Source of the DNA: an uncultured Gammaproteobacteria bacterium
GTDB taxonomy: Bacteria > Patescibacteriota > Patescibacteriia > Magasanikbacterales > JBBTQS01
DNA length: 64,000 nucleotides
Reading direction: 5' to 3'
NCBI GenBank assembly: GCA_965230935.1
Contig: OZ246400.1
Location: 848,864 to 912,863, forward strand
Positions 33,568-52,519 of this stretch are shown here, one piece after another (position 1 is the first letter of the stretch; each line of letters opens with the position of its first letter). The translations under genes were made by a program, and so were the position numbers. The notes beneath the pieces were generated by a model. It saw only the letters and a program-made list of their open reading frames with translations. It was not told the DNA's origin and made no database searches.

Positions 33568-35032
33568 TCTTGTTGAGTAGCCATGACGCCAAATTTTGTT
33601 TGCTGTGTTGTTTGATACAACTGCGTGCATGGTTGGTCTTCGCAAATTTGATCCAGTCAGGACTTGGTCCCTTTCTTTTTTTATCAGTGGTGATGTCAAC
33701 CAAGTCCCCACTCTTGAGCGGTTGGCTCAGTGGTGTCATCGTGTCATTTACTCGCGCTCCAACGCAGGTATTACCAACATCGGTATGGATGGCATAGGCA
33801 AAATCGATTGGTGTCGCATTTTCCGGTAAATCAATTACGTCTCCTTTAGGTGTAAAGACAAAGATGCGATTTTGAAATACGTCGATCTTGAGATGCTCCA
33901 GATCTTGGAGTCGTTGCATAATATCTTTTTGTACTTCAGCTAGTTCTTTAATCCATTGCAATCGCTTTGAAGGAATTCGCGAACCTTGTTCATCATAATG
34001 CCAATGGGATGCAATACCGTACTCAGCATCATCATGCATTTCTTGTGTTCGGATTTGAAATTCTACAATCTCGCCATTGGTACAAAACACGGTTGTGTGA
34101 AGTGACTGATAGCCATTTGGCTTTGGCTGCGCAATGTAGTCTTTGATCCGTCCTTTGAGGGGGCGCCACACTTTATGAATAATTCCTAGAACGGCATAAC
34201 AGTCTGCGACGCTGGGAACGATAATTCGTAGAGCTACAAGATCGTAAATCTTATCAATATTACGATCATACTTCATCAGTTTTTTATACAGACTGTACAA
34301 TCGTTTTGTTCGCCCATGAATATCAAGTGTTGGAATAGACTCTTTTTCGAGCTCTTTTTTGATCTGCCGTTGAATTTGACGCAGATATTTTTCTTTCTCA
34401 TCAAATTGTTCGCTGATCAGGTTTTTTACCCATTTATATTCTTTCGGATATACATATTTAAATGATTCGTCCTCAAGACGTCCTTTCATATCACCCATCC
34501 CAAGACGGTTGGCAATCGGTGCATAGATCTCCAGGCTTTCTAGTGCAATGCGGTATTGCTTTTTTGGGGGGAGTGAGTCAAGTGTTTGAAGGTTATGTAA
34601 TCGGTCGGCAAATTTTACAATCATCACGCGCACATCATTGGCAACGGCCACAAACATTTTACGAAGGTTTTCAATGTACCGTTCTACACCACGATATTTG
34701 AGCTTTCCTAATTTGGTGATTCCTGAAACAATGGTCTCAATGTCTTTTCCAAAGTTCTTTTCAATATCCTCAAGCGTTACATTGGTATCTTCTGGAACAT
34801 CATGCAGCAATGCCGCCAAGATAATAGATTCATGCATTTCCATCTCAGCCAGCAATGTTGCCGCGGCGAGCGGATGGATAATATATGGTTCTCCGGATTT
34901 TCGACGTTGTCCTTTATGAGCATTATTCGCAAAGTCATAGCAGAGTTTGACCAATTCTAAATCCGCCCCTTTGTTTTTGGCGGAAATAGTCTTCAATAGT
35001 CGATCAATGGTATAAGCCTTTGGTTTTGCCAT
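33548..35032 (-). CDS. rel: Short RelA/SpoT homolog (HD hydrolase, synthetase and TGS domains; no C-terminal regulatory domains)
   Basis: HD motif HDVPEDT and a synthetase domain. It ends shortly after the TGS domain, at 494 aa. Confidence 0.9.
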   Translation of the reverse strand: MAKPKAYTIDRLLKTISAKNKGADLELVKLCYDFANNAHKGQRRKSGEPYIIHPLAAATLLAEMEMHESIILAALLHDVPEDTNVTLEDIEKNFGKDIETIVSGITKLGKLKYRGVERYIENLRKMFVAVANDVRVMIVKFADRLHNLQTLDSLPPKKQYRIALESLEIYAPIANRLGMGDMKGRLEDESFKYVYPKEYKWVKNLISEQFDEKEKYLRQIQRQIKKELEKESIPTLDIHGRTKRLYSLYKKLMKYDRNIDKIYDLVALRIIVPSVADCYAVLGIIHKVWRPLKGRIKDYIAQPKPNGYQSLHTTVFCTNGEIVEFQIRTQEMHDDAEYGIASHWHYDEQGSRIPSKRLQWIKELAEVQKDIMQRLQDLEHLKIDVFQNRIFVFTPKGDVIDLPENATPIDFAYAIHTDVGNTCVGARVNDTMTPLSQPLKSGDLVDITTDKKRKGPSPDWIKFAKTNHARSCIKQHSKQNLASWLLNKITTEEN

Positions 35033-35063
35033 ATGGATATCGCTATATTTAGCGTACTCTTGC

Positions 35064-35092
35064 TTGACAATTTTGTCTATATGTGCTATAGT
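35064..35092 (+). promoter_or_regulatory. Near-consensus sigma70-type promoter TTGACA-N17-TGcTATAGT
   Basis: Exact -35 hexamer, 17-bp spacer and an extended -10 element, read directly from the sequence. Confidence 0.55.
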
Positions 35093-35098
35093 CTGCGC

Positions 35099-35160
35099 AG
35101 GTGATGTTTAGGTATAACCTAAGCCAAGAGGGAAACCGCCAGACTGTTGGCGGTTTTTCT
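35099..35160 (+). ncRNA. Candidate small RNA of about 60 nt (promoter to terminator unit, no ORF)
   Basis: It starts about 7 nt after the -10 element. It contains the ttaggt-ata-acctaa hairpin and ends at a strong terminator. Confidence 0.35.
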
Positions 35161-35165
35161 TTTGT
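35134..35165 (+). terminator. Intrinsic terminator (8-bp stem aaccgcca/tggcggtt followed by TTTTTCTTTTGTTTT)
   Basis: Read directly from the sequence. Confidence 0.7.
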
Positions 35166-35281
35166 TTTAGGCAATTTGCTATTGACCAGAGTATGCAGGA
35201 ATGATACCCTATGCTCGTGGTTCGAGAGGGCCTGAGCATCACCATTGGCACGAGGTTACCTCATTCGAGCCACACAAAGTA

Positions 35282-35309
35282 TCCCAGCATTGCTGGGATT
35301 TTTTGTTTG
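35282..35309 (+). terminator. Intrinsic terminator (cccagca/tgctggg followed by TTTTTTGTTTG)
   Basis: Read directly from the sequence. It follows a 10-bp G.U-containing stem at about 35212-35271 that is more stable in the plus sense. Confidence 0.55.
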
Positions 35310-35310
35310 T

Positions 35311-35364
35311 AAATCAAAACGCCCCCTCCTGCGTTGTGCGCGAAATGCGCTGCAGAAGGGGACG
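35311..35364 (-). terminator. Intrinsic terminator of the high-GC lipoprotein gene (13-bp GC-rich stem followed by TTTTGATTT on the minus strand)
   Basis: Stem cgtccccttctgc/gcaggagggggcg containing two G.U pairs in the minus sense. Confidence 0.5.
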
Positions 35365-35421
35365 CCTCAAGTTGTTGGTGAGTGTGTGGATCAGTTGCGC
35401 TGGTGAGGCGCTACCGAAGCA

Positions 35422-36381
35422 TCACTCGCCAGGACAGGTGACGACCTGGTTGAACGATTCGCTCCCGCACGAGTAGTCGTCGCAAACCGTCAGGGTGATG
35501 GTGAACTCGCCGCACTGCACGAACTCGACCGTGGCGTAGGTCTCGGTGTCGTACTTGATCAGCGGGGACTGCACGTCGGCCTCGACCGCCGTGACCTCCC
35601 ACTGGTAGCTGTCCACCATGCCGAAGTGGTCGGTGCTGGAGCCGGACTTGGTCCCGTCGAGGCTGATGTGCTTGAGCGTGTCGATGGCGATCGACTGCGG
35701 CTCGTTGATCAGGTCGATGGGGTTCCAGCTCTGGCTGTACGCCATGGCCTTGATCCGGGCGGTGGGCGCCGGCGCCTGGGTGGCGTAGCCACCGAGGCTG
35801 AGCTCGTAGGTGTGGTTCTCGATCTCAGCCGCGTGCGCCGTGGCCTCGATCGTGAGCACGCCGTAGCGGTACTCAGTGAAATCCACGTCCAGCTCGAGCT
35901 CCTCGTGCGTCTTGGGCTCGAACACGGTCGGGATGGCGCTCTTGTGGCCGGCCTCGATGGTCTGGAACCGGTTCTTGGTCGCCACATCGAAGTCCGCCTC
36001 GCCGTCGCCGTACACCACCACGTCGATCACCTCGACGTCCACGCTGTACTCGCACCCGTTGTGCACCTGGATCATGCGCTGAGTCGCGCCGCCCAGGTAC
36101 GTATCGGGGAACTCGTACGTCGCAGGGATGGTGATGCACTTGGACAGCGCCGCCGCCTCCACGTCCTGCTCGTTGTCGCTCGTCTCGTCGGACCCAGCCA
36201 GCTCGGCCGGCGGCCCCTCGGGCTCACCGTGCTCGCCGAAGCCGCAGTCGCCCTTGTAGATCTCGGCGACCTCCCAGCCGCGCTCGATCGTGGGGTCGGA
36301 CTCGGCCATGCAGCCGATCTGCGGGGTGGCAGCGATGAAAAGGACGAAGATGAGCGACGCGTTGTTGATAACCCGCTTCAT
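35422..36381 (-). CDS. High-GC secreted lipoprotein of unknown function (319 aa, Asp/Glu-rich, three Cys pairs)
   Basis: Signal peptide with a lipobox (FIAATPQIGC) and a GGAGGC RBS. About 65% GC, in sharp contrast to its flanks. The antisense ORF at 35626-36552 is compositional noise. Confidence 0.7.
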   Translation of the reverse strand: MKRVINNASLIFVLFIAATPQIGCMAESDPTIERGWEVAEIYKGDCGFGEHGEPEGPPAELAGSDETSDNEQDVEAAALSKCITIPATYEFPDTYLGGATQRMIQVHNGCEYSVDVEVIDVVVYGDGEADFDVATKNRFQTIEAGHKSAIPTVFEPKTHEELELDVDFTEYRYGVLTIEATAHAAEIENHTYELSLGGYATQAPAPTARIKAMAYSQSWNPIDLINEPQSIAIDTLKHISLDGTKSGSSTDHFGMVDSYQWEVTAVEADVQSPLIKYDTETYATVEFVQCGEFTITLTVCDDYSCGSESFNQVVTCPGE

Positions 36382-36554
36382 GAGAATGCCTCCGTTGCTT
36401 ACTGTCTCTTACTGTTGCGCTCAAACGCCGGCACCTGCCGACTCGTACTTGGGGTAAACCCGTTCCGTAGGGAATACATTTACTGTTTTTGGAAAATGCC
36501 CTCCTTACGAAGCGTTTTCTTAAACAACGTAAAATCAACTCGAAATAACTGAGA

Positions 36555-36583
36555 AGTATAGCACAAAAAAGCAGTTTTGTCAA
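36555..36583 (-). promoter_or_regulatory. Near-consensus promoter TTGACA-N17-TGcTATACT on the minus strand, about 170 nt upstream of the lipoprotein gene
   Basis: Reverse complement of 36555-36583, read directly from the sequence. Confidence 0.5.
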
Positions 36584-36631
36584 GGTTTGAAGGCTTAAAT
36601 AAGCTAATTTTGCTAAAAGTAGCAATAATAA

Positions 36632-36660
36632 AAATTGCCCAAATTGGGCAATTTTTACTT
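36632..36660. terminator. Bidirectional intrinsic terminator downstream of topA (aaattgccc-aaatt-gggcaattt between A and T tracts)
   Basis: Read directly from the sequence. Confidence 0.65.
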
Positions 36661-36679
36661 TTTTCAATTGTGAAGAAAT

Positions 36680-38911
36680 TTATTCTTGATCCGGTGCAGT
36701 TCCTTTATACTTACACACTTTATCACTACATTTAGTCGTGCCTTTGGCCCCGTATACTAAGAGTGATTTACAATCGGGGCATTTTTCTCCAGTAGGCTTA
36801 CTCCAGAGCGCAAAGTCACAATCAGGATATTGATTACAGCCATAAAAACTTCGACCACGTTTGCTCTTCTTTTCAATAATCTCTCCTTTTTTACACTGAC
36901 TACAATTTACTCCGGTCTTTTTTTCAATCGCTTTAATGGTTTTGCAATCCGGATACCCAGTACACCCAAGGAATGGACCATATCGACCATGTTTGAGTGC
37001 CATTGGTTTACCACATTTTTCACACGGCTGCGCATCTGCTTCAAGGGATGCTTCTTGTTCTCGCTCCTCTTTATCAAATGGTTCGGTATGTCGACAATCA
37101 GGATAGCCGGTGCAGGCATAAAATTTTCCAAAGCGGCCAGTTTTAATCACCATGGCCTTACCACAGTCAGTACAGGTTTGATCTGTAGCTTCTTCGGTGA
37201 GTTCTTTTTTGTCAATTGTTTCTTCTTTTTCCATAACCAATTTATTAAATGGTTCATAAAAATCATGTAAAAGCGTAGTCCACTTCTTTTTGCCGTGTGC
37301 GATAGAATCAAGATCAGTTTCCACCTGTGCAGTAAAATCATAATCCACAATTTGTGGAAAGTGTTTGGTAAGAAGGGTATTCACTACCGTGCCGATATCA
37401 GTTGGTTTAAGTCGTTTGTTTTCAGTCCGTGCAACATAATTGCGTTTCTCAATCGTCGCAATGGTCGGTGCATAGGTTGATGGGCGACCAATCCCATGTT
37501 CTTCCAGTACTTTCACCAGCGTTGCATCAGAATAGCGAGCCGGTGGTTCTGTAAAATGCTGTTTTGCTTCTACCGTTTTGGCAGTGACCACTTGCGCTTC
37601 TTCAAGTTCAGGCAATAAGGTTTCTTTGGTGAGCCCGGGGTACACTTTCAAAAATCCTTCAAACGTAATTGTCGAACCACTTGCACGGAACAGATAGGTT
37701 TTCTTCCCGTCATTTTCCACATCAATTGTGGTTTGGGCAAGTTGGGCATCTGCCATTTGAGTTGCCACGGCACGGTTCCAGATAAGCGCATAGAGCTTTA
37801 ATTGGCGCGGGGTTAGATGCCCCTTCATATCTTGCGGTGTGTAATGAATATGTGTTGGACGAATCGCTTCATGCGCTTCTTGCGCACCTTTTGCCTTTTT
37901 GCCAAATACTCGTGGTTTTGTCAGTTGATATTCTTTTCCAAAATGATCTGCAACAAAGCTATTTGCTTCCCCTAAAAATTTTGATGAAAGATTGACGGAG
38001 TCAGTACGCATATACGTAATCAATCCGACTTGTGAACCATCAATGGCAATACCTTCGTATAATTGTTGCGCAATCATCATGGTTTGTTTTGAAGAAAATC
38101 CAAGTCGATTGTTTGCGTCTTGTTGCAGAGTCGAGGTGCGATACGGTGGTTGCGGTGCTTTTTTCTTGTCTTTACGAACCACCTTCGCAATGTGATAGGC
38201 ACTGTCTTTAAGATCATCAGTAATCGCTTTGGCGGATTTCTCAGATTTGATCGCAAACTTATCAAGTTTTTTTCCACCAATGCTATGGAGCTTGGCTTCG
38301 AATGTTTCTTTTTGTTTTGTTTCAAATACACTTGGAATACTCCAATACTCTTTCGGTACAAATGCGGTAATCTCATTTTCACGCTCAACAATTAAGCGCA
38401 TGGCAACCGATTGTACACGTCCAGCTGATAATCCACGCGCTACCTTTTTCCAAAGAAGGGGAGAGAGACGATATCCAACCAAACGATCAAGTACCCGTCG
38501 TGCTTGTTGCGCATCAACCATCTGCATATCAATGGTACGAGGTTGCTTGAGCGCTTCGTCAATAGCATGTTTGGTAATCTCATGAAACGTAATACGCTTT
38601 GATGTTTTAGGATCAAGCCCAAGCGCATGAGCCAAATGCCAAGAGATAGCTTCACCTTCACGATCTTCGTCAGTGGCAAAGTAGATTTCTTCTGCGCGTT
38701 TTGCGGCTTTTTTTAGTTCAGTAATCAGTTTTTTCTTATCATCAGGAATAACATATTCAGGTGCAAAATTATCTTCAACATCGACACCGATTTTGCTTTT
38801 TGGCAAATCTCGAATATGACCAAAAGAGGATTCAACTTTGTATCCCTTTCCTAAAAATTTTGAAATGGTTTTTGCCTTTGTAGGCGACTCAACGATAACA
38901 AGTGATGACAT
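36680..38911 (-). CDS. topA: DNA topoisomerase I with C-terminal zinc ribbons
   Basis: TOPRIM N-terminus (IVESPTKAK) and multiple C4 zinc ribbons. Confidence 0.95.
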   Translation of the reverse strand: MSSLVIVESPTKAKTISKFLGKGYKVESSFGHIRDLPKSKIGVDVEDNFAPEYVIPDDKKKLITELKKAAKRAEEIYFATDEDREGEAISWHLAHALGLDPKTSKRITFHEITKHAIDEALKQPRTIDMQMVDAQQARRVLDRLVGYRLSPLLWKKVARGLSAGRVQSVAMRLIVERENEITAFVPKEYWSIPSVFETKQKETFEAKLHSIGGKKLDKFAIKSEKSAKAITDDLKDSAYHIAKVVRKDKKKAPQPPYRTSTLQQDANNRLGFSSKQTMMIAQQLYEGIAIDGSQVGLITYMRTDSVNLSSKFLGEANSFVADHFGKEYQLTKPRVFGKKAKGAQEAHEAIRPTHIHYTPQDMKGHLTPRQLKLYALIWNRAVATQMADAQLAQTTIDVENDGKKTYLFRASGSTITFEGFLKVYPGLTKETLLPELEEAQVVTAKTVEAKQHFTEPPARYSDATLVKVLEEHGIGRPSTYAPTIATIEKRNYVARTENKRLKPTDIGTVVNTLLTKHFPQIVDYDFTAQVETDLDSIAHGKKKWTTLLHDFYEPFNKLVMEKEETIDKKELTEEATDQTCTDCGKAMVIKTGRFGKFYACTGYPDCRHTEPFDKEEREQEASLEADAQPCEKCGKPMALKHGRYGPFLGCTGYPDCKTIKAIEKKTGVNCSQCKKGEIIEKKSKRGRSFYGCNQYPDCDFALWSKPTGEKCPDCKSLLVYGAKGTTKCSDKVCKYKGTAPDQE

Positions 38912-38961
38912 ACGAAAAAAATACTAACTGTGCTTGAGCATAAATGAGGCTCTGATGATTG

Positions 38962-40344
38962 TCAAATGGTATACGGATTAGCAGCGCGATTTTCAAGAAT
39001 ATCTTGCTCAGATATCCAGTGGGTACGCAACTCACCAGCAAGGAATACTGAGCCGGTAATAAGGACAATATCTTGTGGGTGCGCCCGGTTACGTGCTCGC
39101 GCAAGTGCTTGTTGTGGTTGCGCGTATTGTTTTACATCAGCGCAATACTGTTTGGCGAGTGTTGCAAGCATATGTGGCTGTGCTGATTTACGATAGGTAT
39201 TTTTCGTGAACCGCGTGGTGTATATTGCAGTAGCATGTGGAGCAATCGTGCGGATGATACGTAGCAAATCTTTGTTTTCAGCAATACCAATCACCAGATG
39301 AACCCGCGTGTCTTTGCGGTGTTTACGAATGGCAACAAGAGCATCGCGGGTTGAGCGCATTTTATCTGGATTGTGCGCGCCATCAACAATCACCAGTGGT
39401 GTGTCATAGATTACCTCAAAACAAGTTGGTCGGCTGACAGTTGCTAGACCTTTTTGAGTAGCTATCTTTGATAGTCGAAGCGCATGTGCTGCCTCAATGG
39501 CAAGTGTGGCATTACTTGCTTGGTGTGCACCGATAATCGGCATGGAGTATTGCTGTCTCTGGTAGGTAAACTCGGTGCCAAGTTCGGACAGTATGATATT
39601 GCTTGGCGCACTGACATAATGTATTGTTTTTGGTTTGTGCTTTTTCATCTCCTTTGCAAACACCGCACGAACTGCTTTGGTTTTCTCAGCACTGATAAAG
39701 TGCGTTCCTGATTTAATGATCCCAGCTTTTTCCCAGGCAATTTTGGTTTTGGTTTTGCCCAGCAAGTCCGTGTGATCAAGTCCAACATTGGTAATGATGG
39801 TGACATCAGGAGTGGGGATGGTATTGCTTGCGCTAAAGCGTCCGCCAAGGCCGACCTCAATGACCGCATACTGAACTTTTTTTTGTGCAAAATGCAAAAC
39901 AGTCATGGCAAACATGACTTCAAAAAATGACACCATCCCAAATGGAGAAATCTTGGCGGCAATCGTAAGTGCACGGCGCATTGTTTTGACTAAGCGCGTA
40001 AAGGCAATCAAGGAAATGAATTTTTTATTCACTCGGATACGCTCGATCGCTGTGGTCGGATGCGGGGAGTAGGTTGACCCAACTGATTTGCCGGCAGCGA
40101 GCAGGATTTCATGTACCATCTGTGTGGTAGAGCCTTTACCACTTGTTCCGGTGATATGAATATAATGAGGGATTGCACGTTCGGGGTTGCCGAGCAAATC
40201 TAAAAACCACTGTGTGCGTTGCAAGAAGATCTCGCACTCTTTGTAATTATTCATGTATTCCTTTTTGGGGAATTGGTTGATAAAATCAATCAGCTCTTTG
40301 AGTGATTGATGATAGTCATTGATTTGGGTTTTGCGATAGCGCAT
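38962..40344 (-). CDS. folC: Folylpolyglutamate synthase / dihydrofolate synthase (Mur ligase family)
   Basis: HITGTSGKGST P-loop and an EVGLGGRF motif. Confidence 0.85.
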   Translation of the reverse strand: MRYRKTQINDYHQSLKELIDFINQFPKKEYMNNYKECEIFLQRTQWFLDLLGNPERAIPHYIHITGTSGKGSTTQMVHEILLAAGKSVGSTYSPHPTTAIERIRVNKKFISLIAFTRLVKTMRRALTIAAKISPFGMVSFFEVMFAMTVLHFAQKKVQYAVIEVGLGGRFSASNTIPTPDVTIITNVGLDHTDLLGKTKTKIAWEKAGIIKSGTHFISAEKTKAVRAVFAKEMKKHKPKTIHYVSAPSNIILSELGTEFTYQRQQYSMPIIGAHQASNATLAIEAAHALRLSKIATQKGLATVSRPTCFEVIYDTPLVIVDGAHNPDKMRSTRDALVAIRKHRKDTRVHLVIGIAENKDLLRIIRTIAPHATAIYTTRFTKNTYRKSAQPHMLATLAKQYCADVKQYAQPQQALARARNRAHPQDIVLITGSVFLAGELRTHWISEQDILENRAANPYTI

Positions 40345-40353
40345 GAAGGTATT

Positions 40354-41427: not shown

Positions 41428-41430
41428 AGC

Positions 41431-44980: not shown

Positions 44981-45006
44981 CTTTTGTTCTTTTCATGTGC
45001 TTTTTG

Positions 45007-45097: not shown

Positions 45098-45144
45098 TAA
45101 GAAGTCTGGTGCTTGGTCTGAAACCCAAACGTTGGAGGAAGAGG

Positions 45145-45303: not shown

Positions 45304-45481
45304 TCAGGTATACCTGTACGAATCAGCTGTCTATCTCTGAGGTGCAACGTCGCATCTTGAGCTCTAAGCAATTGAGCGTGCAGGTATGCACACATCGATG
45401 ACCTTGGAGGGTCCGATGATTTTTTCCGTTTTGACCACTTTGGCCACTATCAGCAACCCCAACGACTCCGAGGAGGGAGCC

Positions 45482-47170
45482 ATGAGCGACGACAAGAAGA
45501 GCAAGAAGAAGTCGCCGCCGGCCCCGGCGGAGGCGAACGAGGGCGATGCGAAGCGCAAGTACGAGCCGGGTGACGGGCCCTACGAGCGCGTTCACGCGGA
45601 CGTCATCGGCTCGATGGAGGCGCAGTACTGCTGCAATCCTTTCGACCAGGCCGACGCGTGTGACTTCACCGGCGGTCCGGACGAGCTGACGTTGCCGAGC
45701 TTCAAGGCGCTCAACAGCAGCATCAGCCGGGTGCACGGGCTCAAGCGCGGGTTCTTCCCGGGTGACGAGGCCATCTACGCCCGTTGCCCGCAACACGCGC
45801 ACGAGGTCCGGTACGGCAACCGGACGATCCGCGAGACCTTCAAGTACACGGCCGATCGTTGGGCCGGTAAGGGTCGGACCCCGAGCACCTGGATGGCGCA
45901 GCCGCTGCCGCACCCCGAGGCCTTCAATAAGCACCCGTACTGCACTCCGTGCAGCGGGAGCTGCGGCGGCCTGTGGCTCGAGACCAACCTGTACGCCCCG
46001 CAGCCCGAGGCGCTCGTGGAGCAGCTGGAGGACGTCGAGTCCACCGGCGCGCTCACGCGGGAGCACTTCGGCGCGCATCTGCTGTGCAAGCGGTGCGTGG
46101 ACGCTGACGCGGTCGAGCAGGGGACCCTCGTCGAGTTCGCCACGATCGTGGCGGCCTTGGGTTGGGAGCCGCGGGAGTACGTGCCCGAGGCGCTCGATCT
46201 CGAGGGGTTCGAGGGGACGCAGGTCACGGTTGAGCACCCGCAGCTCGAGGTCTCGCAGAAGCTCCAGGCCGTGGTTCGTTCGACTCACACGTCGTTCGGG
46301 GTGTTCGCCCGCATCGTGGATGACGGACGTGACGCCCTGTTGCGTTGGGAGGACGTCAACGCGGACTACAACGTGGGTGACGTGATCGACATCTGGATCG
46401 CGCGGCTGCACTGCAAGACGGGTGAGGACGGCGAGTCGGATCGCCTCTTCATCTGGGCGGCGGACACCAAGCCCGTGCTCTTGGCGGACGTCAAGTCCGG
46501 CCAGGAGTTCGATGGCGAGGTGGCCTCCCACGCGCCCTTCGGCATGTTCGTGCGCATCGGTCCGGCTCTGCCGGCTGGTGTCGTGCACAAGAGCGTGCTG
46601 AGCGGCCGTTCGCGCGACGACTTCCCGGTGAACACGTTCGTCCGGGTCATGGTCAGCGACGTGGACCACAAGCGTTCTCGACTCAACCTCGTGTTGGTCG
46701 AAGACGTGGAGGGAAGCAGAGCGGTCCAGGACTGGAAGGCGCAGGCGCCGGGAGCGGAGGACGTGGTCTCGGTCGACCAGGAGGTGGGGAAAGGTAAGAC
46801 CCCCACCAAGGTCGGCCTGACCATGGTTCCGCCCAAGTCCGAGCAGCCCAAGTCCAAGAAGTCCCGGTTCGTCCCCAGGCGCCGCACGACGTACGTGGTG
46901 GGTCCCAAGCCCGCCGCTGCGCAGCAGCGTGAGGAGGTCGAGGCGCAGCTCGCCGATGCCGCCAAGGTGTTCGGTGAGGCCGAGCACATCCAGAAGACCG
47001 GTACCTACGGGGCCGGATCCAAGGACAGCATCGGTCGCTCGCTCGAGGGGCGCAAGGCCGGTAAGGCCAAGCGCTCGAAAGCCGAGGAGATCAAGGATCG
47101 GACGCTCAAGGTGTTCGGCGACCTCTTCAACGTCCGCCAGGGCAAGGGCAAGAAGGGCAAGGGCAACTGA
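45482..47170 (+). CDS. High-GC 562-aa protein: N-terminal Cys/His-rich region, three S1/OB-like RNA-binding domains and a Lys/Arg-rich tail
   Basis: GAGGAGGG RBS 6 nt upstream of the ATG. One canonical S1 motif (GQEFDGEVASHAPFGMFVRIGPALPAGVVHKSVLS) and two degenerate ones. About 66% GC with GC3-rich codons. The antisense 622-aa ORF is noise. Confidence 0.7.
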   Translation: MSDDKKSKKKSPPAPAEANEGDAKRKYEPGDGPYERVHADVIGSMEAQYCCNPFDQADACDFTGGPDELTLPSFKALNSSISRVHGLKRGFFPGDEAIYARCPQHAHEVRYGNRTIRETFKYTADRWAGKGRTPSTWMAQPLPHPEAFNKHPYCTPCSGSCGGLWLETNLYAPQPEALVEQLEDVESTGALTREHFGAHLLCKRCVDADAVEQGTLVEFATIVAALGWEPREYVPEALDLEGFEGTQVTVEHPQLEVSQKLQAVVRSTHTSFGVFARIVDDGRDALLRWEDVNADYNVGDVIDIWIARLHCKTGEDGESDRLFIWAADTKPVLLADVKSGQEFDGEVASHAPFGMFVRIGPALPAGVVHKSVLSGRSRDDFPVNTFVRVMVSDVDHKRSRLNLVLVEDVEGSRAVQDWKAQAPGAEDVVSVDQEVGKGKTPTKVGLTMVPPKSEQPKSKKSRFVPRRRTTYVVGPKPAAAQQREEVEAQLADAAKVFGEAEHIQKTGTYGAGSKDSIGRSLEGRKAGKAKRSKAEEIKDRTLKVFGDLFNVRQGKGKKGKGN

Positions 47171-47258
47171 GACCTGGTAGAGGCCAGGCACTACACGACA
47201 ACAACAACTGGTTTTGGGGCGGCGCGGACAACGGAGTAACTTCCCGCGTTTGCGTCGC

Positions 47259-47308
47259 CCCTGTCCAATAGTGCAGCTCAGTATACTGAGAGATACTATT
47301 GGGCAGGG
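47259..47308 (+). promoter_or_regulatory. 50-bp near-perfect palindrome (14-bp arms flanking the self-complementary CTCAGTATACTGAG), immediately upstream of the RBS of the next gene
   Basis: Read directly from the sequence. Operator-like. Confidence 0.35.
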
Positions 47309-47326
47309 AAGACAAGGAGGGCCATC

Positions 47327-48001
47327 TTGAAGAGTTTTTCCTCTTTTCGTCTGGTTCGGCGAAGAGGGTTTCGATGGTCAGTGCTGCTTGTCATGCTGGT
47401 CATCTTCATCTTGATTTTTGTCCCGTTGGAGGTGGCACCTATGACGACTACGCCGGAACATGTGGTGAGCTGTGATGCGCCCAGCAAGGTCGTCGTCAGT
47501 TTCACTCAGGAGCAGATGCGCCAACAGGTGAGCCGGGTGTTTCCGATCAATTTGCCTGAGGTGGTGCGCATGGTGGACGTGGTGCTGCACGATCCATCGA
47601 TCACCTTGAACCAGATCAGCGCCAGCACAGTCACACTGGAGCTCGGCGCAACGTTGGTGGTGAGCACGCCATTGCCTGGTGTTCCGGAAGGGCGGTATCG
47701 TGCAACGATCAGCGCCACCGGATCGTTGGTGTACGGCAATGTGCACAAGGCCGTGTACATCAGTGAGTTTGCCATCACGCAGCTCACGCTCAGCGGACGT
47801 CTTGCGCATGTTCAGGACTCGACGCGCTTGCGCGCGTATGTCCAGGAGGTGTTGCAACAGCAGGTGCTGAGTAATGTGCCGCTGTACCGGACAAGTGAGG
47901 CTCAACTCGCCACGATCGCACCAAATGCGGCTGTGGTACAGGCTGCACTCACCCCCAGTGGGGAGGTGCACATTGGTCTGAGCTGGGATGAGCACCGCTG
48001 A
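47327..48001 (+). CDS. DUF1439 (YceB-like) family protein with signal peptide; TTG start
   Basis: AAGGAGGG RBS 7 nt upstream of the TTG. Basic-hydrophobic N-terminus. Resemblance to the DUF1439 pattern. About 58-60% GC. Confidence 0.55.
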   Translation: MKSFSSFRLVRRRGFRWSVLLVMLVIFILIFVPLEVAPMTTTPEHVVSCDAPSKVVVSFTQEQMRQQVSRVFPINLPEVVRMVDVVLHDPSITLNQISASTVTLELGATLVVSTPLPGVPEGRYRATISATGSLVYGNVHKAVYISEFAITQLTLSGRLAHVQDSTRLRAYVQEVLQQQVLSNVPLYRTSEAQLATIAPNAAVVQAALTPSGEVHIGLSWDEHR

Positions 48002-48028
48002 TCACTCGACAACTCATACAACCGTTGG

Positions 48029-48065
48029 CCGCGCGAGCAAACTGCACGCGCGGCTTTCGAATTTG
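48029..48065 (+). terminator. GC-rich hairpin terminator ending island 2 (gccgcgcg...cgcgcggc followed by tttcgaattt)
   Basis: Read directly from the sequence. Confidence 0.45.
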
Positions 48066-48091
48066 CAAAAAAACTAAGGAATTTGTATACT
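48063..48091 (+). promoter_or_regulatory. Promoter TTGCAA-N17-TATACT for hup
   Basis: Read directly from the sequence. Confidence 0.5.
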
Positions 48092-48129
48092 TGCGCTGTT
48101 ATTGTTAACTCTTAACGCCTACCAACATT

Positions 48130-48414
48130 ATGGCTAAAGGAATTACTAAGTCTCAACTTATGAATGAGTTGGGTGAAAAGTGGGGTGTCAGCAAAAAAGA
48201 GGCTGCTGAAATGCTTGAAGCATTAGTGCAACTTGCATACCACCACGCAAAGACTGATGGGGAAATGATGATCCCTGGTCTTGGGAAGCTGGTAAAAGCA
48301 CACCGTAAAGCACGTATGGGTCGTAACCCAGCAACCGGTGAGCAAATTCACATCCCTGCTAAGACTGTGGCAAAGTTCCGTTTAGCAAAGGCCGCAAAAG
48401 ACGCAATTCTCTAA
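48130..48414 (+). CDS. hup: HU/IHF family DNA-binding protein
   Basis: 94 aa; GFGKF-like arm (IPGLGKLVKAHRKARMGRNPATGEQI). Confidence 0.9.
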   Translation: MAKGITKSQLMNELGEKWGVSKKEAAEMLEALVQLAYHHAKTDGEMMIPGLGKLVKAHRKARMGRNPATGEQIHIPAKTVAKFRLAKAAKDAIL

Positions 48415-48432
48415 ACGTAGAATTACGAGACA

Positions 48433-48458
48433 AAAAAGCCGCGCAAGCGGCTTTTTTG
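48433..48458. terminator. Bidirectional terminator between the convergent HU genes (aaaaaagccgcgcaagcggctttttt)
   Basis: Read directly from the sequence. Confidence 0.7.
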
Positions 48459-48491
48459 ATGGGTATTCCTTTTTCGGTACCTAGTAAAGAC

Positions 48492-48914
48492 CTACGACGT
48501 TGGTGCTGAATCACCTGTCGAGTCATCTGCCGGAGAAGATGGTTCCGGAGGTGAGGCCGGGGCACTTGGGGTTGGTGTTTCAGTAGCTGGTGTTGAAGGG
48601 GCTGCAGGTGCACTTCCTTCGTGTTGAGATTTCTTGAGTGCATCCTTAAGGTTTTTTCCGGCCTTAAACTTGGCTACTTTAGTAGGATTGATGGTAATTT
48701 TTTCACTTGGATTTTGTGGGTTCACCCCAATACGACCTGCACGAACACGTGCGGAGAACGTACCAAATCCAGCAAGAACCACCTCACCGTTCATTTTAAG
48801 GGTATCAGTGGTGATACTCATAAAGGCCTCAACCATATCTTCGGCCTCTTTTTTGCTCACACCAACTTTGGCGCTAATTGCATCGGCTAATTCTGCTTTA
48901 TTCATGTTCGTCAC
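48492..48914 (-). CDS. HU family DNA-binding protein with a Pro/Ala/Ser/Thr-rich acidic C-terminal tail
   Basis: HU core (GFGTFSARVRAGRIGVNPQNPSEKI) plus a roughly 45-aa PAST-rich tail. Confidence 0.85.
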   Translation of the reverse strand: MTNMNKAELADAISAKVGVSKKEAEDMVEAFMSITTDTLKMNGEVVLAGFGTFSARVRAGRIGVNPQNPSEKITINPTKVAKFKAGKNLKDALKKSQHEGSAPAAPSTPATETPTPSAPASPPEPSSPADDSTGDSAPTS

Positions 48915-48968
48915 CTCCCTCTAGGAGTAGGTTATTTTACACAATCAGTGTACCAGAAGTATGCAAAT

Positions 48969-50492
48969 TTAGCGAGCGTATTCAATAACTCGTGTCTCGC
49001 GGATCACTGTGACCTTTACTTCACCAGGATATTTGATTTCTGACTCAATATTGCGAGCAATATTCTTGGCCAAGCCAAATGCACCGTAATCGTCCAGATT
49101 TTTAGGGTTCACAAACACGCGAATTTCACGTCCTGCCTGAATCGCATAGGCTTTTTCAACTCCAGGATGGCTATTAGCTATGTTTTCAAGTTCTTCAAGC
49201 TTTTGGATATACAGCTCATGAGAGTCTCGTCGGGCTCCTGGACGTGCCCCAGAAAGCGCATCTGCTACTTTGGAAATCGAACCAAGCAATGTCTTTGGTG
49301 CGTCCTCATGATGGGCAACACAACAATAGGCAATCTCTTCCGGCATGTTGAATTTTTTCATGATGGCATAGCCAATTTCTGGATGTCCTCCTTGAGTTTC
49401 GTGATCTACCGCTTTTCCAATATCATGGAACAATCCTGCTTTTTTGGCAGCAACCGGGTCAGCGCCTAACTCTTTTGCAAGCATTTCAGAGAAATATGCC
49501 ACTTCTTTTGAATGTTTGAGTTGGTTTTGGCCAAAGCTGGTGCGGTATTTCAATCGTCCTAAAATAGACACAAGCTTTGGATCAATGCCGGTAATACCAA
49601 GTTCATACAGCACTTCTTCACCGGCGCGTTTAATATCAAGTGCTAACTCCTTTTTGGCCTCTTCAACAAAGTTTTCAATACGCGCCGGATGGATCCGACC
49701 ATCTTTAAGCAGTTTCTCTAATGTGATTCGTGCCACTTGACGACGAATCGGCGCAAAACTTGAGATAGTAACCACACCAGGGGTCTCATCGATAATAAAG
49801 TCACAGCCGGTGAGGCGCTCAAGCATGCGGATGTTGCGCCCCTCTTTTCCAATAATGCGTCCCTTCATTTCTTCATTAGGGATTTCTACCACGCTGGTTG
49901 CATTTTCTGAGACTGTTGAAGCCGCATACCGTTCCATAATGACCGAGAGTTTGCGATTGGCAATGCGCTCAAGTTCTTCTTCGTCTTCTCGTTGGAGTTT
50001 TTGGATGCGACTTGCAAGCTCTTCTTTTGATTGCTCTTCTACTTTTTCGAGCAACTGTGTTTTGGCGTCTTCCACTGATAATTTTGCCACTCCTTCAAGC
50101 TTGGTAATTTCTTGATTGCGGATGTCCTCAATCTCAGTTGCCTTATTTTTGACTAATTCGATCTGCTCTTTGAGCTTTTCTTGTCGATCCTGAAACTCCA
50201 TGAGCTTTTGATCAAACATGTTTTCTCGTTTTTCAAGTCGATCTTGTGTTTGTTTGAGCTCATTGCGTCGGGTTTGTTCTTCTTTTTTGGCTTCATCTAA
50301 TACATGCAATGCCTTCTCCTTGGCCTCAAGCATGATCTGTTGCTGTTTGGCTTTGGTCTCGGTGAGCATTTTGTCAGCTCGTGCTTCAATAGAGTTGGCA
50401 TTGGCAGCAGCAAGTTGCTTGCGCAACACGTACCCAATAGCAAAACCGACAATGGCAGTACCCAGTGCAATAAGAATGGTAGTGGTAGTCAT
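48969..50492 (-). CDS. rny: Ribonuclease Y
   Basis: N-terminal TM segment, coiled coil, KH domain (IGKEGRNIR) and HD domain (GLFHDIGK). Confidence 0.93.
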   Translation of the reverse strand: MTTTTILIALGTAIVGFAIGYVLRKQLAAANANSIEARADKMLTETKAKQQQIMLEAKEKALHVLDEAKKEEQTRRNELKQTQDRLEKRENMFDQKLMEFQDRQEKLKEQIELVKNKATEIEDIRNQEITKLEGVAKLSVEDAKTQLLEKVEEQSKEELASRIQKLQREDEEELERIANRKLSVIMERYAASTVSENATSVVEIPNEEMKGRIIGKEGRNIRMLERLTGCDFIIDETPGVVTISSFAPIRRQVARITLEKLLKDGRIHPARIENFVEEAKKELALDIKRAGEEVLYELGITGIDPKLVSILGRLKYRTSFGQNQLKHSKEVAYFSEMLAKELGADPVAAKKAGLFHDIGKAVDHETQGGHPEIGYAIMKKFNMPEEIAYCCVAHHEDAPKTLLGSISKVADALSGARPGARRDSHELYIQKLEELENIANSHPGVEKAYAIQAGREIRVFVNPKNLDDYGAFGLAKNIARNIESEIKYPGEVKVTVIRETRVIEYAR

Positions 50493-50683
50493 ATGATTTT
50501 GGTGGTGCCAAAATCAAAAGAGAAGATCACACGAAGTTATTCTCGTGTGAGAGTCAGTGTGTGGGTGAGATAAGTAAAACGTGTGTACATAAGTGACTCA
50601 ACCAGATGCTGTCTGACGATCTTCGCTTCAATTTCAGCAATTACCTTACAAAATTAAATTTCTGTACCGCTAGTGTAGCGTAT

Positions 50684-51364
50684 TTATGCTTGATTGGCAA
50701 GTGTTAGTGACTGCCAGTTTTCAGTGGTGATTTGGGTAATTTCATGGCATTGATCAAGGGAATATTGACCAATTCGTGTGCGAGTAAGTGCACTGGCATA
50801 GGCGCCGCAGCCAAGTGTTTGACCGATGTCATGGATAAGCGTCCGGATGTAGGTTCCAGGACCACATACAATACGCAATTGTGCTTGTTGATTTTGGGTA
50901 TCAACGTGGAGCAGTTCAATAGATGAGATGCTAATGGTTGTTGGTTGGCGGGCAATAGTTTTTCCAGCACGCGCCAATTCATACAGTTTTTTTCCTTGAA
51001 TTTTTTTGGCACTATACATTGGTGGTATTTGTGAGATGTTGCCAATAAATTTGGGGAGAACTTGTTGAAGAGTCTCTTGGGTGATTGTTGCAGGATGAGG
51101 ATGTGGTGTAATGATGCCGTCACTATCTTGAGTGTCGCTGACGGCACCAAATTGTGCAGTGGCAATATATTCTTTTTCAAGCGCTTTAAATTGATCAATA
51201 GATTTGGTGCTTTCGCGAGTAATGGCGACAATAAGTACCCCGGTAGCAAAAGGGTCAAGTGTGCCAGCGTGGCCGATTTTTTTCTCACCAGTAATACTGC
51301 GTAATTTAGCGACAATATCGTGAGAAGTCCATTCTTTTGGTTTATTGATGCACACAAATGGCAT
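50684..51364 (-). CDS. truB: tRNA pseudouridine-55 synthase TruB
   Basis: GHAGTLDPFATGVL motif. Confidence 0.92.
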   Translation of the reverse strand: MPFVCINKPKEWTSHDIVAKLRSITGEKKIGHAGTLDPFATGVLIVAITRESTKSIDQFKALEKEYIATAQFGAVSDTQDSDGIITPHPHPATITQETLQQVLPKFIGNISQIPPMYSAKKIQGKKLYELARAGKTIARQPTTISISSIELLHVDTQNQQAQLRIVCGPGTYIRTLIHDIGQTLGCGAYASALTRTRIGQYSLDQCHEITQITTENWQSLTLANQA

Positions 51365-51513
51365 ATACTGAGTTTTAGGATTGATAATATGTTCAAACTA
51401 TACTAGTATCATCAATACTACTCAAGACAAGTCATGACGGATGGTGCGTGTCCTATATTTAGGGTAGGCATGGTCCGTTATACAGCCACGGGTTGGTTGG
51501 AGGAGTACCTCAG

Positions 51514-52416
51514 ATGATAATTGAAGTCGGCCCAGACGGGGGGAGCGTAAAGCATCCTCCTCCTGCTGGCAGCAGCGAAGACCGGCGGCGTCGTGGCCGT
51601 AGCAGAGGTCGACGCGGTGGTCGGCGAGGAAAAGGAACAGGAGGTTCAAAACTCGATTCGTCAAATAGGGCCTCGGGTGGTGCAGACCCTCCTAGGCTAG
51701 TCGTAAGGGGGAAAGAACCACCATCGGATAGTCCTCCCGACGAGTCAGTGTTACTGGCCGCACAGTTGATGGAGCTTGTAGAGGGCTCTTTAGACTCGAG
51801 CGGGTTGCCAGGCTTGCGGGAATTTGATCCTGAGTTGAGCTCAGAGGATCGCGAGGAGTTGCGTCAACGGTTTCGAGAGGTCGTGGCCAAGTTGTGCGCG
51901 CACGTGGATCAGTTGCAGCTTCACCAGCTGGCGCTCCAGCCAGATGTCGGTGGACCGCTTCGCGAGGTGCGTCTATGCTTGCTCGGCTGGATGGATCTTG
52001 CGAGTGCTCGACGCAAAGCGGTGTATGCGGCGCTTGATCGCGCAATACTCGCCTTGATCGCGCAAGAGGAGAGCGACCCAAAGGAGTCACTTGGACGTAC
52101 CCAGCGTCGGCGGCGTGAGCGACGTTCACGGATTGCACGTCAAGTGCGACAGCTTCGCTTGCGCCTGGAATCTATCCATCCCGGCAAGGATGGTATGAGT
52201 TTTCAGGAGTACGATCTTGTGCGTCCGGCCCTTGAAGGGCAAATTCGTCGATTGGCTGAAGTTCGAGATTTGAGACGCAACAGACGGGCACAGACCCTCT
52301 TTGCTCATCTGCTCGAGACTCTGCCTATGTGGCGCGGGCTTCCAAGAGCAGAACGACGAGTAGTGCTCTATGAGCTCAGACGGCTTGAGAGGCTGTTCAC
52401 GGACTCAGACTCGTAG
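51514..52416 (+). CDS. High-GC hypothetical protein (300 aa; Arg/Gly-rich N-terminus, Arg/Leu-rich helical remainder)
   Basis: GGAGGAG RBS 7 nt upstream of the ATG at 51514. About 60% GC; the antisense ORF is noise. No recognisable domain. Confidence 0.55.
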   Translation: MIIEVGPDGGSVKHPPPAGSSEDRRRRGRSRGRRGGRRGKGTGGSKLDSSNRASGGADPPRLVVRGKEPPSDSPPDESVLLAAQLMELVEGSLDSSGLPGLREFDPELSSEDREELRQRFREVVAKLCAHVDQLQLHQLALQPDVGGPLREVRLCLLGWMDLASARRKAVYAALDRAILALIAQEESDPKESLGRTQRRRRERRSRIARQVRQLRLRLESIHPGKDGMSFQEYDLVRPALEGQIRRLAEVRDLRRNRRAQTLFAHLLETLPMWRGLPRAERRVVLYELRRLERLFTDSDS

Positions 52417-52443
52417 TCCATACCATCCAACAAACAACACGAT

Positions 52444-52471
52444 GCAGCGTCAACGGCGCTGCTTTGGTTTT
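52444..52471 (+). terminator. Hairpin terminator (gcagcg-tcaacgg-cgctgc followed by TTTGGTTTT) ending island 3
   Basis: Read directly from the sequence. Confidence 0.45.
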
Positions 52472-52491
52472 GGGCTGATATGTCCTGAATC

Positions 52492-52519
52492 TTGCATTTT
52501 TTCTCGATTTTGCTATACT
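52492..52519 (+). promoter_or_regulatory. Promoter TTGCAT-N16-TGcTATACT for infB
   Basis: Read directly from the sequence. Confidence 0.5.

Follow-up and report, generated by a model that had tools for sequence, protein, structure and literature searches.

Candidate moron-like, GC-rich gene cassettes between housekeeping genes in a Patescibacteria clade

Three GC-rich segments were found in a 64,000 nt stretch of DNA (the window; contig OZ246400.1 of GCA_965230935.1, positions 848,864-912,863, forward strand) from a member of the Patescibacteriota (Magasanikbacterales, GTDB): I1 between relA and topA (~35310-36450), I2 with the genes I2a and I2b between lytR and HU (~45450-48050) and I3 between truB and infB (~51500-52450). 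We somewhat favour the view that they represent moron-like autonomous cassettes of foreign codon type, kept in one Patescibacteria clade. Such a cassette would run from a sigma-70-type promoter through a long leader and a Shine-Dalgarno sequence to one or two genes without full-length relatives and an intrinsic terminator, and would occupy a permissive intergenic slot between conserved housekeeping genes of a CPR chromosome. The coding sequences of I1 and I2a, and probably that of I2b, would have originated outside the lineage, and I1 would have entered before the split from the related genome L019. The GC-rich synonymous sites would have been maintained since entry, rather than being a leftover in decay, either by repeated replacement or because selection acts on the coding sequence or the mRNA.

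The segments stand out by base composition as originally predicted. In 500-nt windows their GC content reached 0.57-0.68, compared to a mean of 0.445 (sd 0.024, maximum 0.51) in the remaining sequence, which places windows inside the islands 5-10 sd over background. The island edges are sharp and the flanks show no GC gradient, and the non-coding DNA within the islands has a GC content of just 0.48-0.60. All three islands contain gene-sized, intact reading frames in intergenic positions with housekeeping genes on both sides, and none of the ORFs of at least 150 aa elsewhere in the window had a comparable GC3. The predicted presence of comEC (58057-59376) and dprA (40354-41427) in the window was likewise confirmed.

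A chimeric assembly or an artificial construction had been raised as alternatives. An ENA MEGAHIT contig (run ERR2281800) and Logan contigs (ERR2281801), thus two assemblers and two runs, reproduced the covered junctions, with 100% identity across all stretches that were fetched or inferred. The fetched MEGAHIT stretch takes in the two junctions of I1 as well as the promoter of I2, and judging from its length the contig presumably continues into I2a; the Logan contig L001 spans the right-hand junction of I2 and the two junctions of I3. Since the junctions match base for base in independent assemblies, the islands are not chimeras. Artificial construction is excluded because public metagenome assemblies and a second genome carry the cassettes. 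This second genome, from another project, contains GC-rich cassettes, an I1 ortholog among them, in one continuous sequence with the same flanking housekeeping genes; moreover, the island genes possess promoters and ribosome-binding sites of native style, in frame with the flanks. Short-read contigs do break inside I1 (Logan gap 35840-36327), and the MEGAHIT contig appears to end in I2a near 46544, with the next Logan contig starting at 46864, but these breaks would fit a lower coverage of GC-rich DNA. An artefact in the form of a chimeric assembly, a contaminating high-GC organism or an engineered construct is hardly conceivable, and the islands are genuine chromosomal DNA.

The I1 cassette is located on the minus strand. 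Its promoter (36555-36583; TTGACAAAACTGCTTTTTTGTGCTATACT) has a perfect -35 element, a 17-nt spacer with the palindrome ACAAAA-N6-TTTTGT and an extended -10 element. It is followed by a 5' leader of ~170 nt (36382-36554), in which GC drops from 0.56 to 0.36 in promoter direction and whose 3' end is the Shine-Dalgarno sequence GGAGG, 7 nt from the ATG. The gene (35422-36381; 319 aa; GC 0.65, GC3 0.94) was assigned to the minus strand because of its GC3 periodicity. In public gene calls an antisense 308-aa ORF was chosen instead. The protein starts with a lipoprotein-type signal (…AATPQIGC), followed by a beta-rich body that weakly matches a PKD/Ig-like domain (Pfam K319L-like PKD, E 4e-4, below the family cutoff). 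Downstream of the gene lies a terminator hairpin (35335-35318) with a T run behind, and a second, bidirectional terminator hairpin (35299-35281) is common to I1 and the neighbouring small RNA B.

Outside the I1 island, a conserved non-coding block (35064-35308, plus strand) comprises two short promoter-to-terminator units. Unit A (small RNA A, 35064-35170) has its promoter at 35064 and a conserved, terminator-ended transcript of ~70 nt; unit B (small RNA B, ~35180-35308) shares its terminator hairpin with I1. The block is 73.5% identical at the nucleotide level to positions 16921-17166 of L019 and is also present in the relative L023; it had no match among Rfam families. The motif TTGACA-N17-TGnTATAnT occurs only four times in the 64 kb (3822, 35064, 36583 on the minus strand, and 44952). 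The promoter at 35064, which had probably been taken as the driver of the first island, drives unit A; the I1 gene lies on the opposite strand, with its promoter at the other side of the island. A near-identical promoter was indeed found in front of I1 and I2, but not I3, which is preceded by a 9/12 match only.

On the plus strand, the I2 promoter (44952-44980; TTGACAAAAGCACCAAAATGTGTTATAGT) precedes a leader of ~500 nt (44987-45481; GC 0.32-0.60), for which no match was found among Rfam families. This leader contains a long hairpin (arms 45000-45022 and 45082-45104) and a possible small ORF of 52 aa, rich in Cys, starting at about 45146. The first gene, I2a (45482-47170; 562 aa; GC 0.667, GC3 0.90), encodes a protein with a Lys-rich tail at the N-terminus, then a Cys-rich stretch (~240 aa) without relatives, two S1/OB domains and, at the C-terminus, a basic tail; in the PDB its weak matches were confined to ribosomal protein bS1. 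With an alternative in-frame start at 45386 it would reach 594 aa. A hairpin with overlapping arms of 32 nt (47254-47313) separates I2a from I2b (47327-48001; 224 aa; GC 0.575, GC3 0.69), whose product has an N-terminal membrane anchor or signal and a DUF1439 domain (Pfam PF07273, E 2.8e-10, above the cutoff). The NCBI call for I2b is 186 aa long with a start at 47441. The cassette ends in a terminator-like hairpin (48028-48066; GCCGCGCG…CGCGCGGC) with a short T-rich stretch, directly followed by the HU promoter (48063-48091).

I3 appears to stand apart, as a gene specific to its lineage that encodes an Arg-rich protein in native-like codons. The gene (51514-52416, plus strand; 300 aa; GC 0.58, GC3 0.53) is preceded by a weak promoter-like site (51381-51409; TTGATA-17-TAGTAT) overlapping the divergent truB promoter, and is followed by an intrinsic terminator (52444-52472) with an 8-bp stem (6/8 G-C) and a T run. 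A good promoter 3' of I3 (about 52493-52521) serves infB. The NCBI call starts at 51493 and yields 307 aa. The protein (17% Arg, 14% Leu, 9% Gly) has a disordered Arg/Gly-rich N-terminus and a subsequent Arg/Leu/Glu-rich segment, predicted to be helical from its composition; its content of Arg, Leu and Gly accounts for the high GC of the gene through codon positions 1 and 2.

Codon bias of the island genes was scored against 45 native genes and revealed that the islands are heterogeneous. I1 and I2a are extreme outliers (z = 14.0 and 12.3), I2b is intermediate (5.9) and I3 falls into the native range (1.9), so that all three islands are compositional outliers by GC, but I3 is not by codon usage. 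The difference in codon usage between I1 and I2a is only 0.059. Both use one extreme high-GC codon dialect, almost without A-ending codons (A3 0.01, CGT and GGT kept), which is foreign to the rest of the genome but also occurs in L019. The predicted set of three insertions from one high-GC donor does not hold in this form: I3 has native-like codons, I2b is doubtful, and no donor was found.

GC3 periodicity, the S1 and DUF1439 matches, the Shine-Dalgarno sequences and the signal peptides support that the genes are real. I1 (lipoprotein signal and Ig-like match) and I2b (DUF1439) probably encode exported envelope or surface proteins, and if so these could meet the host cell. I2a and I3 are likely basic nucleic-acid-binding proteins. 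These assignments are predictions from sub-threshold or generic domain matches, with structure models at pLDDT ~36. I1 and I2 are likely transcribed, judging from sequence, from the strongest promoter type of the window, as is tuf.

In Der protein identity to the window, the closest relative, L019, shows 65%, and those without cassettes at the same sites show 55-58%. According to annotated gene coordinates, L020 and L021 have ~100 nt between topA and relA and 57 nt between infB and truB. In the sequence of L023 the topA terminator is directly followed by the conserved small RNAs and then relA. The predicted insertions are thus borne out against these more distant relatives, whose clean empty sites imply that cassettes were gained or lost whole. 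The strong promoter is missing from the sequence-checked L023 empty site (as judged by eye); hence the I1 promoter belongs to the cassette, and the islands were not slotted behind existing host promoters as had been proposed. L019 itself carries cassettes of the same build, in the same codon dialect and in the same slots. The arrangement of promoter, gene and terminator was found four times, with several cassettes between HU and lytR and a tandem pair following topA. Look-alikes of the I1-type promoter (90-92%) lie at 14787-14811, belonging to the I1 ortholog, and at 6689-6719, belonging to another GC-rich cassette. The I1 ortholog (14935-15786; 27% identity, tblastn E 1e-20; GC3 0.86) occupies the same slot in the same orientation.

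This ortholog bears on the age of I1. At fourfold sites of eight flanking orthologs, window and L019 gave 0.351 observed versus 0.273 expected (n = 973), which is almost saturated. In the I1 pair, fourfold-site GC is 0.87/0.89, a comparison of one ortholog pair at 27% identity over 38 such sites. Because the L019 ortholog is GC-rich despite this near-saturated synonymous divergence, I1 is probably old rather than recent. The original prediction of recent, separate uptakes from a high-GC donor, possibly the host, by natural transformation behind host promoters, with a composition that has not yet drifted, fails for I1 and is doubtful as a general explanation. It would be in line with the comEC and dprA genes, with the sharp boundaries, with the lack of cassettes in more distant relatives and with I1/I2a codons resembling those of a genuine high-GC organism, and the GC3 values of 0.94, 0.90, 0.69 and 0.53 could be taken to reflect a series of ages. 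Experiments on cultivated Saccharibacteria have demonstrated competence (PMC10633639), and horizontal transfer and genomic islands are described for groundwater Patescibacteria (PMC12455944). However, the promoters are part of the cassettes, the codon usage of I3 is not an outlier, searches gave no donor homolog, and the junctions display no microhomology or duplication. Uptake via ComEC and DprA is plausible as an entry route only; nothing at the junctions points to it.

The same ortholog pair, which holds a high GC3 across near-saturating divergence, is also compatible with a purely native origin, i.e. fast-evolving, clade-specific genes in which gene-specific selection, acting for instance on mRNA stability or the speed of translation, or else a local bias in repair or recombination would have driven up GC3. 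I1 is extreme at GC3 only: its GC1 (0.59) and GC2 (0.42) are native values and do not match the expectation for a genome of ~68% GC, which leaves room for this origin, and no homolog was found outside the clade. The non-coding parts of the islands are moderately GC-rich. We nevertheless regard it as unlikely, given the clean empty sites and the flanks without the gradient that biased gene conversion would give. The tuf gene has the same promoter type as the I1 and I2 cassettes yet an ordinary GC3, so strong transcription alone is not the cause of high GC3. To our knowledge there is no precedent for selection shifting GC3 from 0.39 to 0.94 in single bacterial genes.

Searches for a donor, which the original prediction had called for, returned none. 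The four island proteins lack full-length relatives apart from the diverged I1 ortholog in L019. A word-indexed search of I1 and I2a against 5.8 billion proteins was negative, a weak result because the known L019 ortholog was missed as well. In an exhaustive HMMER search against 1.84 billion representatives only residues ~244-499 of I2a were matched, mostly S1 at ~250-436, and scan patterns of GTDB species representatives gave no close relative of I2a but weak S1 matches only. Further, tblastn found no match for I1, I2a and I3 in 50,697 phage records or for I1, I2a and I2b in 72,556 plasmids, nothing useful was retrieved from IMG/VR for all four island proteins, and no PHROG family matched any of eight cassette proteins. 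Neither target-site duplications, flanking or direct repeats nor microhomology were detected at the junctions, and no integrase, tRNA target or phage structural genes in the surroundings. Descent from a decayed prophage or other mobile element, with the cassettes as true phage morons or left-over cargo, would explain the promoter-gene-terminator build with deviant composition and the small, basic products with zinc-ribbon-like motifs and without relatives in both window and L019. Considering these negative searches and the conserved, syntenic housekeeping genes on both sides, such a descent is very improbable.

Several known systems can be compared with the cassettes. Natural competence is reported for Saccharibacteria, a Patescibacteria phylum, in PMC10633639, where comEC is mentioned ten times. 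The window has comEC as well as dprA. By best hits, however, its organism falls outside the Saccharibacteria: the named Der homologs are from the "Patescibacteria group" and Magasanikbacteria (46-55% identity). Its competence is putative, and the junctions bear no sign of transformation. Groundwater Patescibacteria, of the same phylum, contain hundreds of islands and transferred genes making up to 13% of genome length, mostly exchanged between Patescibacteria and with annotated functions (PMC12455944); at least one relative, L020, stems from a sample that its contig name would place in Hainich groundwater. No literature description of single-gene cassettes with GC3 >0.9 and consensus promoters was found; gene callers, which pick the antisense frame, would overlook such genes. 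Integron arrays resemble the cassettes as compact, modular, mostly unrelated orphan genes piling up at a hotspot (HU-lytR in L019), but integrase and attC-like repeats are lacking here and every cassette brings a promoter and a terminator of its own. Horizontally acquired genomic islets are said to follow the amelioration model of Lawrence & Ochman from 1997. Like these, the cassettes are compositional outliers and patchy among relatives; unlike them, they lack an integrase, tRNA target, direct repeat and donor homolog, and the I1 cassette common to window and L019 has not taken on the recipient composition, despite near-saturation of neutral sites between the two. Phage morons, reportedly described by Juhala et al. 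and Hendrix et al. in 2000, are promoter-gene-terminator units of deviant composition. The cassettes share with them an own sigma-70 promoter and intrinsic terminator, a position between conserved genes where nothing is disrupted and the deviant composition. Unlike morons, they reside in a cellular chromosome (topA/relA, lytR/HU, truB/infB), with no phage genes nearby or phage-family matches, and one of them, I1, was kept across a deep lineage split.

In 500-nt windows, the GC content within the three segments I1, I2 and I3 ranges from 0.57 to 0.68, while the sequence outside them has a mean of 0.445 (sd 0.024, maximum 0.51). The segment edges are sharp at 50-nt resolution and no GC gradient extends into topA, relA, lytR, HU, truB or infB. 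Given these sharp boundaries, biased gene conversion extending from the flanks was rejected. Native genes have mean GC1/2/3 values of 0.56/0.39/0.39. The corresponding values are 0.59/0.42/0.94 for the I1 gene (35422-36381, minus strand), 0.66/0.45/0.90 for I2a (45482-47170, plus strand), 0.60/0.43/0.69 for I2b (47327-48001, plus strand) and 0.71/0.50/0.53 for the I3 gene (51514-52416, plus strand). Karlin codon bias, calculated with 45 native genes as reference, gave z values of 14.0 (I1), 12.3 (I2a), 5.9 (I2b) and 1.9 (I3); I3 is the exception among the islands and lies inside the native range. The GC content of I3 stems from its amino acid make-up (17% Arg, 14% Leu, 9% Gly). Codon usage of I1 and I2a is nearly equal (mean difference 0.059), and a comparable GC3 is not reached by any other ORF of at least 150 aa in the window. 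Dinucleotide signatures of the islands deviate with z values of 3.1-5.4. The three GC-rich spikes of the original prediction (0.57-0.68 versus 0.445) are therefore real, yet the differences in GC3 and in codon bias (z from 14.0 to 1.9) mean that they do not form a uniform set, with I3 standing apart from the I1 and I2 cassettes.

The promoter motif TTGACA-N17-TGnTATAnT is present in four copies in the 64 kb, compared to 0.1 expected. These are located at 3822 (+) before tuf, 35064 (+), 36583 (-) and 44952 (+). Strong transcription was rejected as a cause of the high GC3, because tuf combines this promoter type with an ordinary composition. The predicted I1 promoter (36583-36555, minus strand) is followed by a leader of ~170 nt with a GGAGG motif, and terminators are found at 35335-35318 and 35299-35281. 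The copy at 35064, probably regarded as the promoter of this island in the original prediction, is instead predicted to drive a short, terminator-ended transcript; the I1 gene is on the minus strand. The predicted I2 promoter at 44952 (+) reads through a structured leader of ~500 nt (44987-45481), which contains a hairpin with 23-bp arms at 45000-45104. A possible small ORF encoding 52 aa, Cys-rich and with its own GGAGG, starts at ~45146 in this leader. A hairpin lies between I2a and I2b, and a further one at 48028-48054. At I3 the terminator is clear (52444-52462) and the promoter matches at 9/12 positions only, so a consensus promoter accompanies I1 and I2 and not, as had been claimed, each island.

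Long antisense ORFs are present in I1 (35626-36552, plus strand) and I2a (45323-47191, minus strand). As true genes they were rejected: GC peaks at their codon position 1, which marks them as shadows, and every domain match is on the other strand. Nevertheless, the public gene calls (ENA, Logan) chose these shadow ORFs, which explains why protein collections lack the true products of I1 and I2a. GC-rich genes of low-GC genomes may be miscalled systematically. The I1 product has a lipoprotein signal and a PKD/Ig-like match below threshold. An S1 domain (E 9e-7) and basic tails are present in I2a, and an anchor and a DUF1439 domain (E 2.8e-10) in I2b. A family search with the I3 product gave no match. 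PDB sequence searches with I2a and I3 yielded weak bS1 matches and otherwise non-significant ones, and AlphaFold single-sequence models of I1 and I2a were unusable (pLDDT 36). The evidence for these putative functional assignments is weak.

The window is part of a contig of 931,061 bp (NCBI/ENA). Independent data were available from project PRJEB17505, to which exact protein matches link the window, as a MEGAHIT contig (ERR2281800) and Logan contigs (ERR2281801). The fetched MEGAHIT stretch corresponds to window positions 23548-45032 with 100% identity and takes in all of I1 and the I2 promoter; from its length, the whole contig should run on to about 46544, inside I2a. Logan contigs cover 33271-35839, 36328-40353 and 46864-53356, also with 100% identity. 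The breaks of the short-read assemblies fall inside GC-rich genes (35840-36327 and ~46545-46863) and not at junctions. We think that low coverage of GC-rich DNA fits these breaks; population heterogeneity could also account for them. A chimeric assembly, which the original prediction had offered as an alternative, is contradicted by the junctions that the MEGAHIT stretch and the Logan contigs cover, all at 100% identity to the window, and by an orthologous cassette in a genome from another project.

The relationship of the organism was analyzed with the Der GTPase. The best named relatives are 'Patescibacteria group bacterium' and Magasanikbacteria (46-55% identity), and the nearest relatives reach 65%, 61%, 60%, 58% and 55%. 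A JGI metagenome scan with Der found relatives at 34-39% identity only. By these matches the organism belongs to a poorly sampled Patescibacteria (CPR) lineage, and would not evidently be a Saccharibacterium. Relatives keep the gene order infB-truB-rny-HU-HU-[slot]-lytR-der-pth-dprA-mur-topA-[slot]-relA-parB-parA, and the islands do lie between housekeeping genes, as originally described, with flanks that are syntenic in these genomes. According to annotated gene coordinates, two relatives (L020 and L021, Der 55%) have ~100 nt between topA and relA and 57 nt between infB and truB. In a third (L023, 58%) the topA terminator is directly followed by two conserved small RNAs and then relA, hence an empty I1 slot, in which inspection by eye revealed no slot-facing promoter. 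From these empty sites, I1 and I3 are insertions relative to the three genomes, and the I1 promoter arrived with its cassette. None of the fetched loci of L019-L021, L023 and L026 contains the I2 genes; different orphan genes occupy the HU-lytR interval in each genome examined. In L028, a relative at 51%, no GC-rich spikes were found in 21 kb. A basic protein is the product of one small GC-rich gene in L020.

The closest relative (L019, GCA_964480225.1, Der 65%, background GC ~0.44) carries GC-rich cassettes in the same slots. After topA it has two tandem lipoprotein genes (14935-15786, GC3 0.86, and 15968-16828, GC3 0.77), each preceded by a TTGACA-N17 promoter and a Shine-Dalgarno sequence of its own and followed by a terminator. 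A gene for a 176-aa protein adjoins lytR (GC3 0.87), and a further one encodes 97 aa (GC3 0.72). Codon usage of these cassettes matches I1 and I2a (A3 0.01-0.04, C3 ~0.5). I1 is homologous to the first of the two L019 lipoproteins (27% identity over 266 aa, E 1e-20). The two proteins share their lipobox-type signal and a C-terminal CPG(D)E motif, and the two promoter spacers differ at 2 of 17 positions. The I1 spacer (36563-36580) contains the palindrome ACAAAA-N-TTTTGT, which occurs once in the window and again in two L019 cassette promoters (14787-14811, 6689-6719); it could be a candidate operator of a shared regulator. Cassettes of the same build lie at 3300-6720 and 14787-16900 in L019 and at 791-1130 in L020. 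These GC-rich cassettes encode, among others, the 176-aa protein, which is zinc-ribbon-like, and the one of 97 aa, together with a Lys/Arg-rich protein of 79 aa and a small ORF rich in Arg.

The region that separates relA from the I1 cassette contains two short, conserved transcription units (35064-35308, plus strand). In unit A, a perfect promoter and a terminator enclose ~70 nt. The core of unit B is CGTGGTTCGAGAGGGCCTGAGCATCACCATTGGCACGAGGTTACC…GCCACACA, and a terminator comes after it. The block is found in L019 (16921-17166, minus strand) and L023 (~9598-9850, minus strand). Window and L019 share 73.5% nucleotide identity in it, with compensatory changes in hairpins and terminators. Since neither unit matched an Rfam family (nor did the I2 leader), both are candidates for novel small RNAs of the clade. 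The start codon of relA is only 31 nt away from the divergent small-RNA promoter (35033-35063). This leaves two options for relA, a promoter that overlaps the units of the small RNAs or read-through transcription from the I1 cassette.

To what extent the flanks have diverged was estimated from eight ortholog pairs of the window and L019. Where the residue is conserved, fourfold-degenerate sites show 35.1% identity, compared to 27.3% expected at saturation (n = 973), with a GC content of 0.09-0.49. In the I1 pair the fourfold sites have GC contents of 0.87 and 0.89 and an identity of 0.55 versus 0.40 expected (n = 38), and GC3 of the orthologs is 0.94 (window) and 0.86 (L019) where housekeeping fourfold sites are near saturation. 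Under vertical descent of I1, neutral synonymous sites should long have reached the native ~0.39. Two imports of diverged homologs might have occurred, both into this slot with identical orientation and behind the same promoter, but this is less parsimonious than maintenance of the GC-rich state, which we prefer. I1 is best described as probably predating the split from the closest relative. For I1, recent uptake does not agree with an ortholog that keeps its high GC3 despite near-saturated flanking synonymous sites.

The origin of the islands was addressed by homolog searches. A word-indexed protein search with I1 and I2a gave no match; as it missed the real I1 ortholog of L019, this search is insensitive at 27% identity. 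An exhaustive HMMER search with I2a returned 109 matches with all best stretches within residues ~244-499, mostly the S1 region (~250-436), and none reached the Cys-rich N-terminal region of 240 aa or the extreme C-terminus. In a scan of GTDB species representatives, I2a had weak Geobacter S1 matches only, and the source genome was not among the representatives found. Phage records (I1, I2a, I3), plasmid records (I1, I2a, I2b) and IMG/VR (all four island proteins) gave no match, and PHROGs, PADLOC and NCBIfam nothing except weak S1-type matches for I2a. In these searches no homolog from the proposed high-GC donor was found, the only matches being generic ones to the S1 region. Target-site duplications, which the original prediction had proposed to look for, and flanking direct repeats were not found at the islands; illegitimate joins may leave no repeats at the junctions. 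The two tRNA genes of the window are at 30.6 and 31.8 kb. As stated originally, comEC (58057-59376, Competence domain, E 4e-47) and dprA (40354-41427, E 4.5e-66) are encoded in the window. Just downstream of comEC, a 495-aa protein (60218-61705, plus strand) has six bacterial TSP3 (thrombospondin type 3) repeats. In the leucyl-tRNA synthetase (55006-57978, plus strand, 990 aa), residues ~548-632 match nucleotidyltransferase families (Aminoglyc_resit, E 1.4e-5, and NTP_transf_5), which suggests an inserted domain.

Taken together, the original prediction is confirmed in part in its observation and supported in part in its interpretation. Horizontal transfer into Patescibacteria is documented (PMC12455944), as is competence in Saccharibacteria (PMC10633639), so this kind of event is already known. 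If the islands are merely ordinary old horizontal transfers of orphan genes, their significance is modest. A GC3 of ~0.9 kept in a genome of 44.5% GC across near-saturating divergence contradicts the usual picture of amelioration and points to an unrecognised force acting on few genes. To our knowledge, there is no precedent for single-gene units with GC3 >0.9 that have consensus promoters and orphan products, persist across near-saturating divergence and are miscalled by gene finders. A further-reaching reading, which we consider rather unlikely, is that the clade has long kept strongly promoted orphan cassettes in a foreign, high-GC codon dialect, with synonymous sites actively held at ~90% G/C, either by selection or because a high-GC partner keeps re-supplying these slots. 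If true, codon usage of the cassettes would be a readable fingerprint of the host, and databases would largely lack this class of genes, with gene callers reading the wrong strand. Hosts of almost all Patescibacteria are unknown; for host-imported or host-tuned cassettes, the codon dialect would hint at the host from sequence alone. The class will escape surveys that rely on predicted proteins, as the antisense frame is called in I1 and I2a.

Among known systems, integron cassettes are promoterless and read from a common promoter, whereas here each cassette has its own; no integrase is nearby and no repeat is common to the cassette ends. Like horizontally acquired genomic islets, the islands, I3 excepted, deviate in composition and codon usage and are absent from the same site in relatives, although I1 is present in the closest one. 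Unlike for islets, no homologs were found in a plausible donor, generic S1-region matches aside, nor signs of mobility, with housekeeping genes as neighbours and no flanking repeats, and the I1 orthologs have not decayed to the composition of the recipient. The competence machinery required for natural transformation is encoded (ComEC, DprA). With phage morons, I1 and I2 share a predicted promoter of their own (by consensus match) and an intrinsic terminator; for I3 the terminator is clear and the promoter only a 9/12 match. Morons reside in phages or prophages, whereas the flanks here are syntenic housekeeping genes. The cassette proteins matched no PHROG family, and I1, I2a and I3 no phage record. 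The islands are best described as autonomous, moron-like cassettes with codon usage of a foreign type, which one clade of Patescibacteria has retained.
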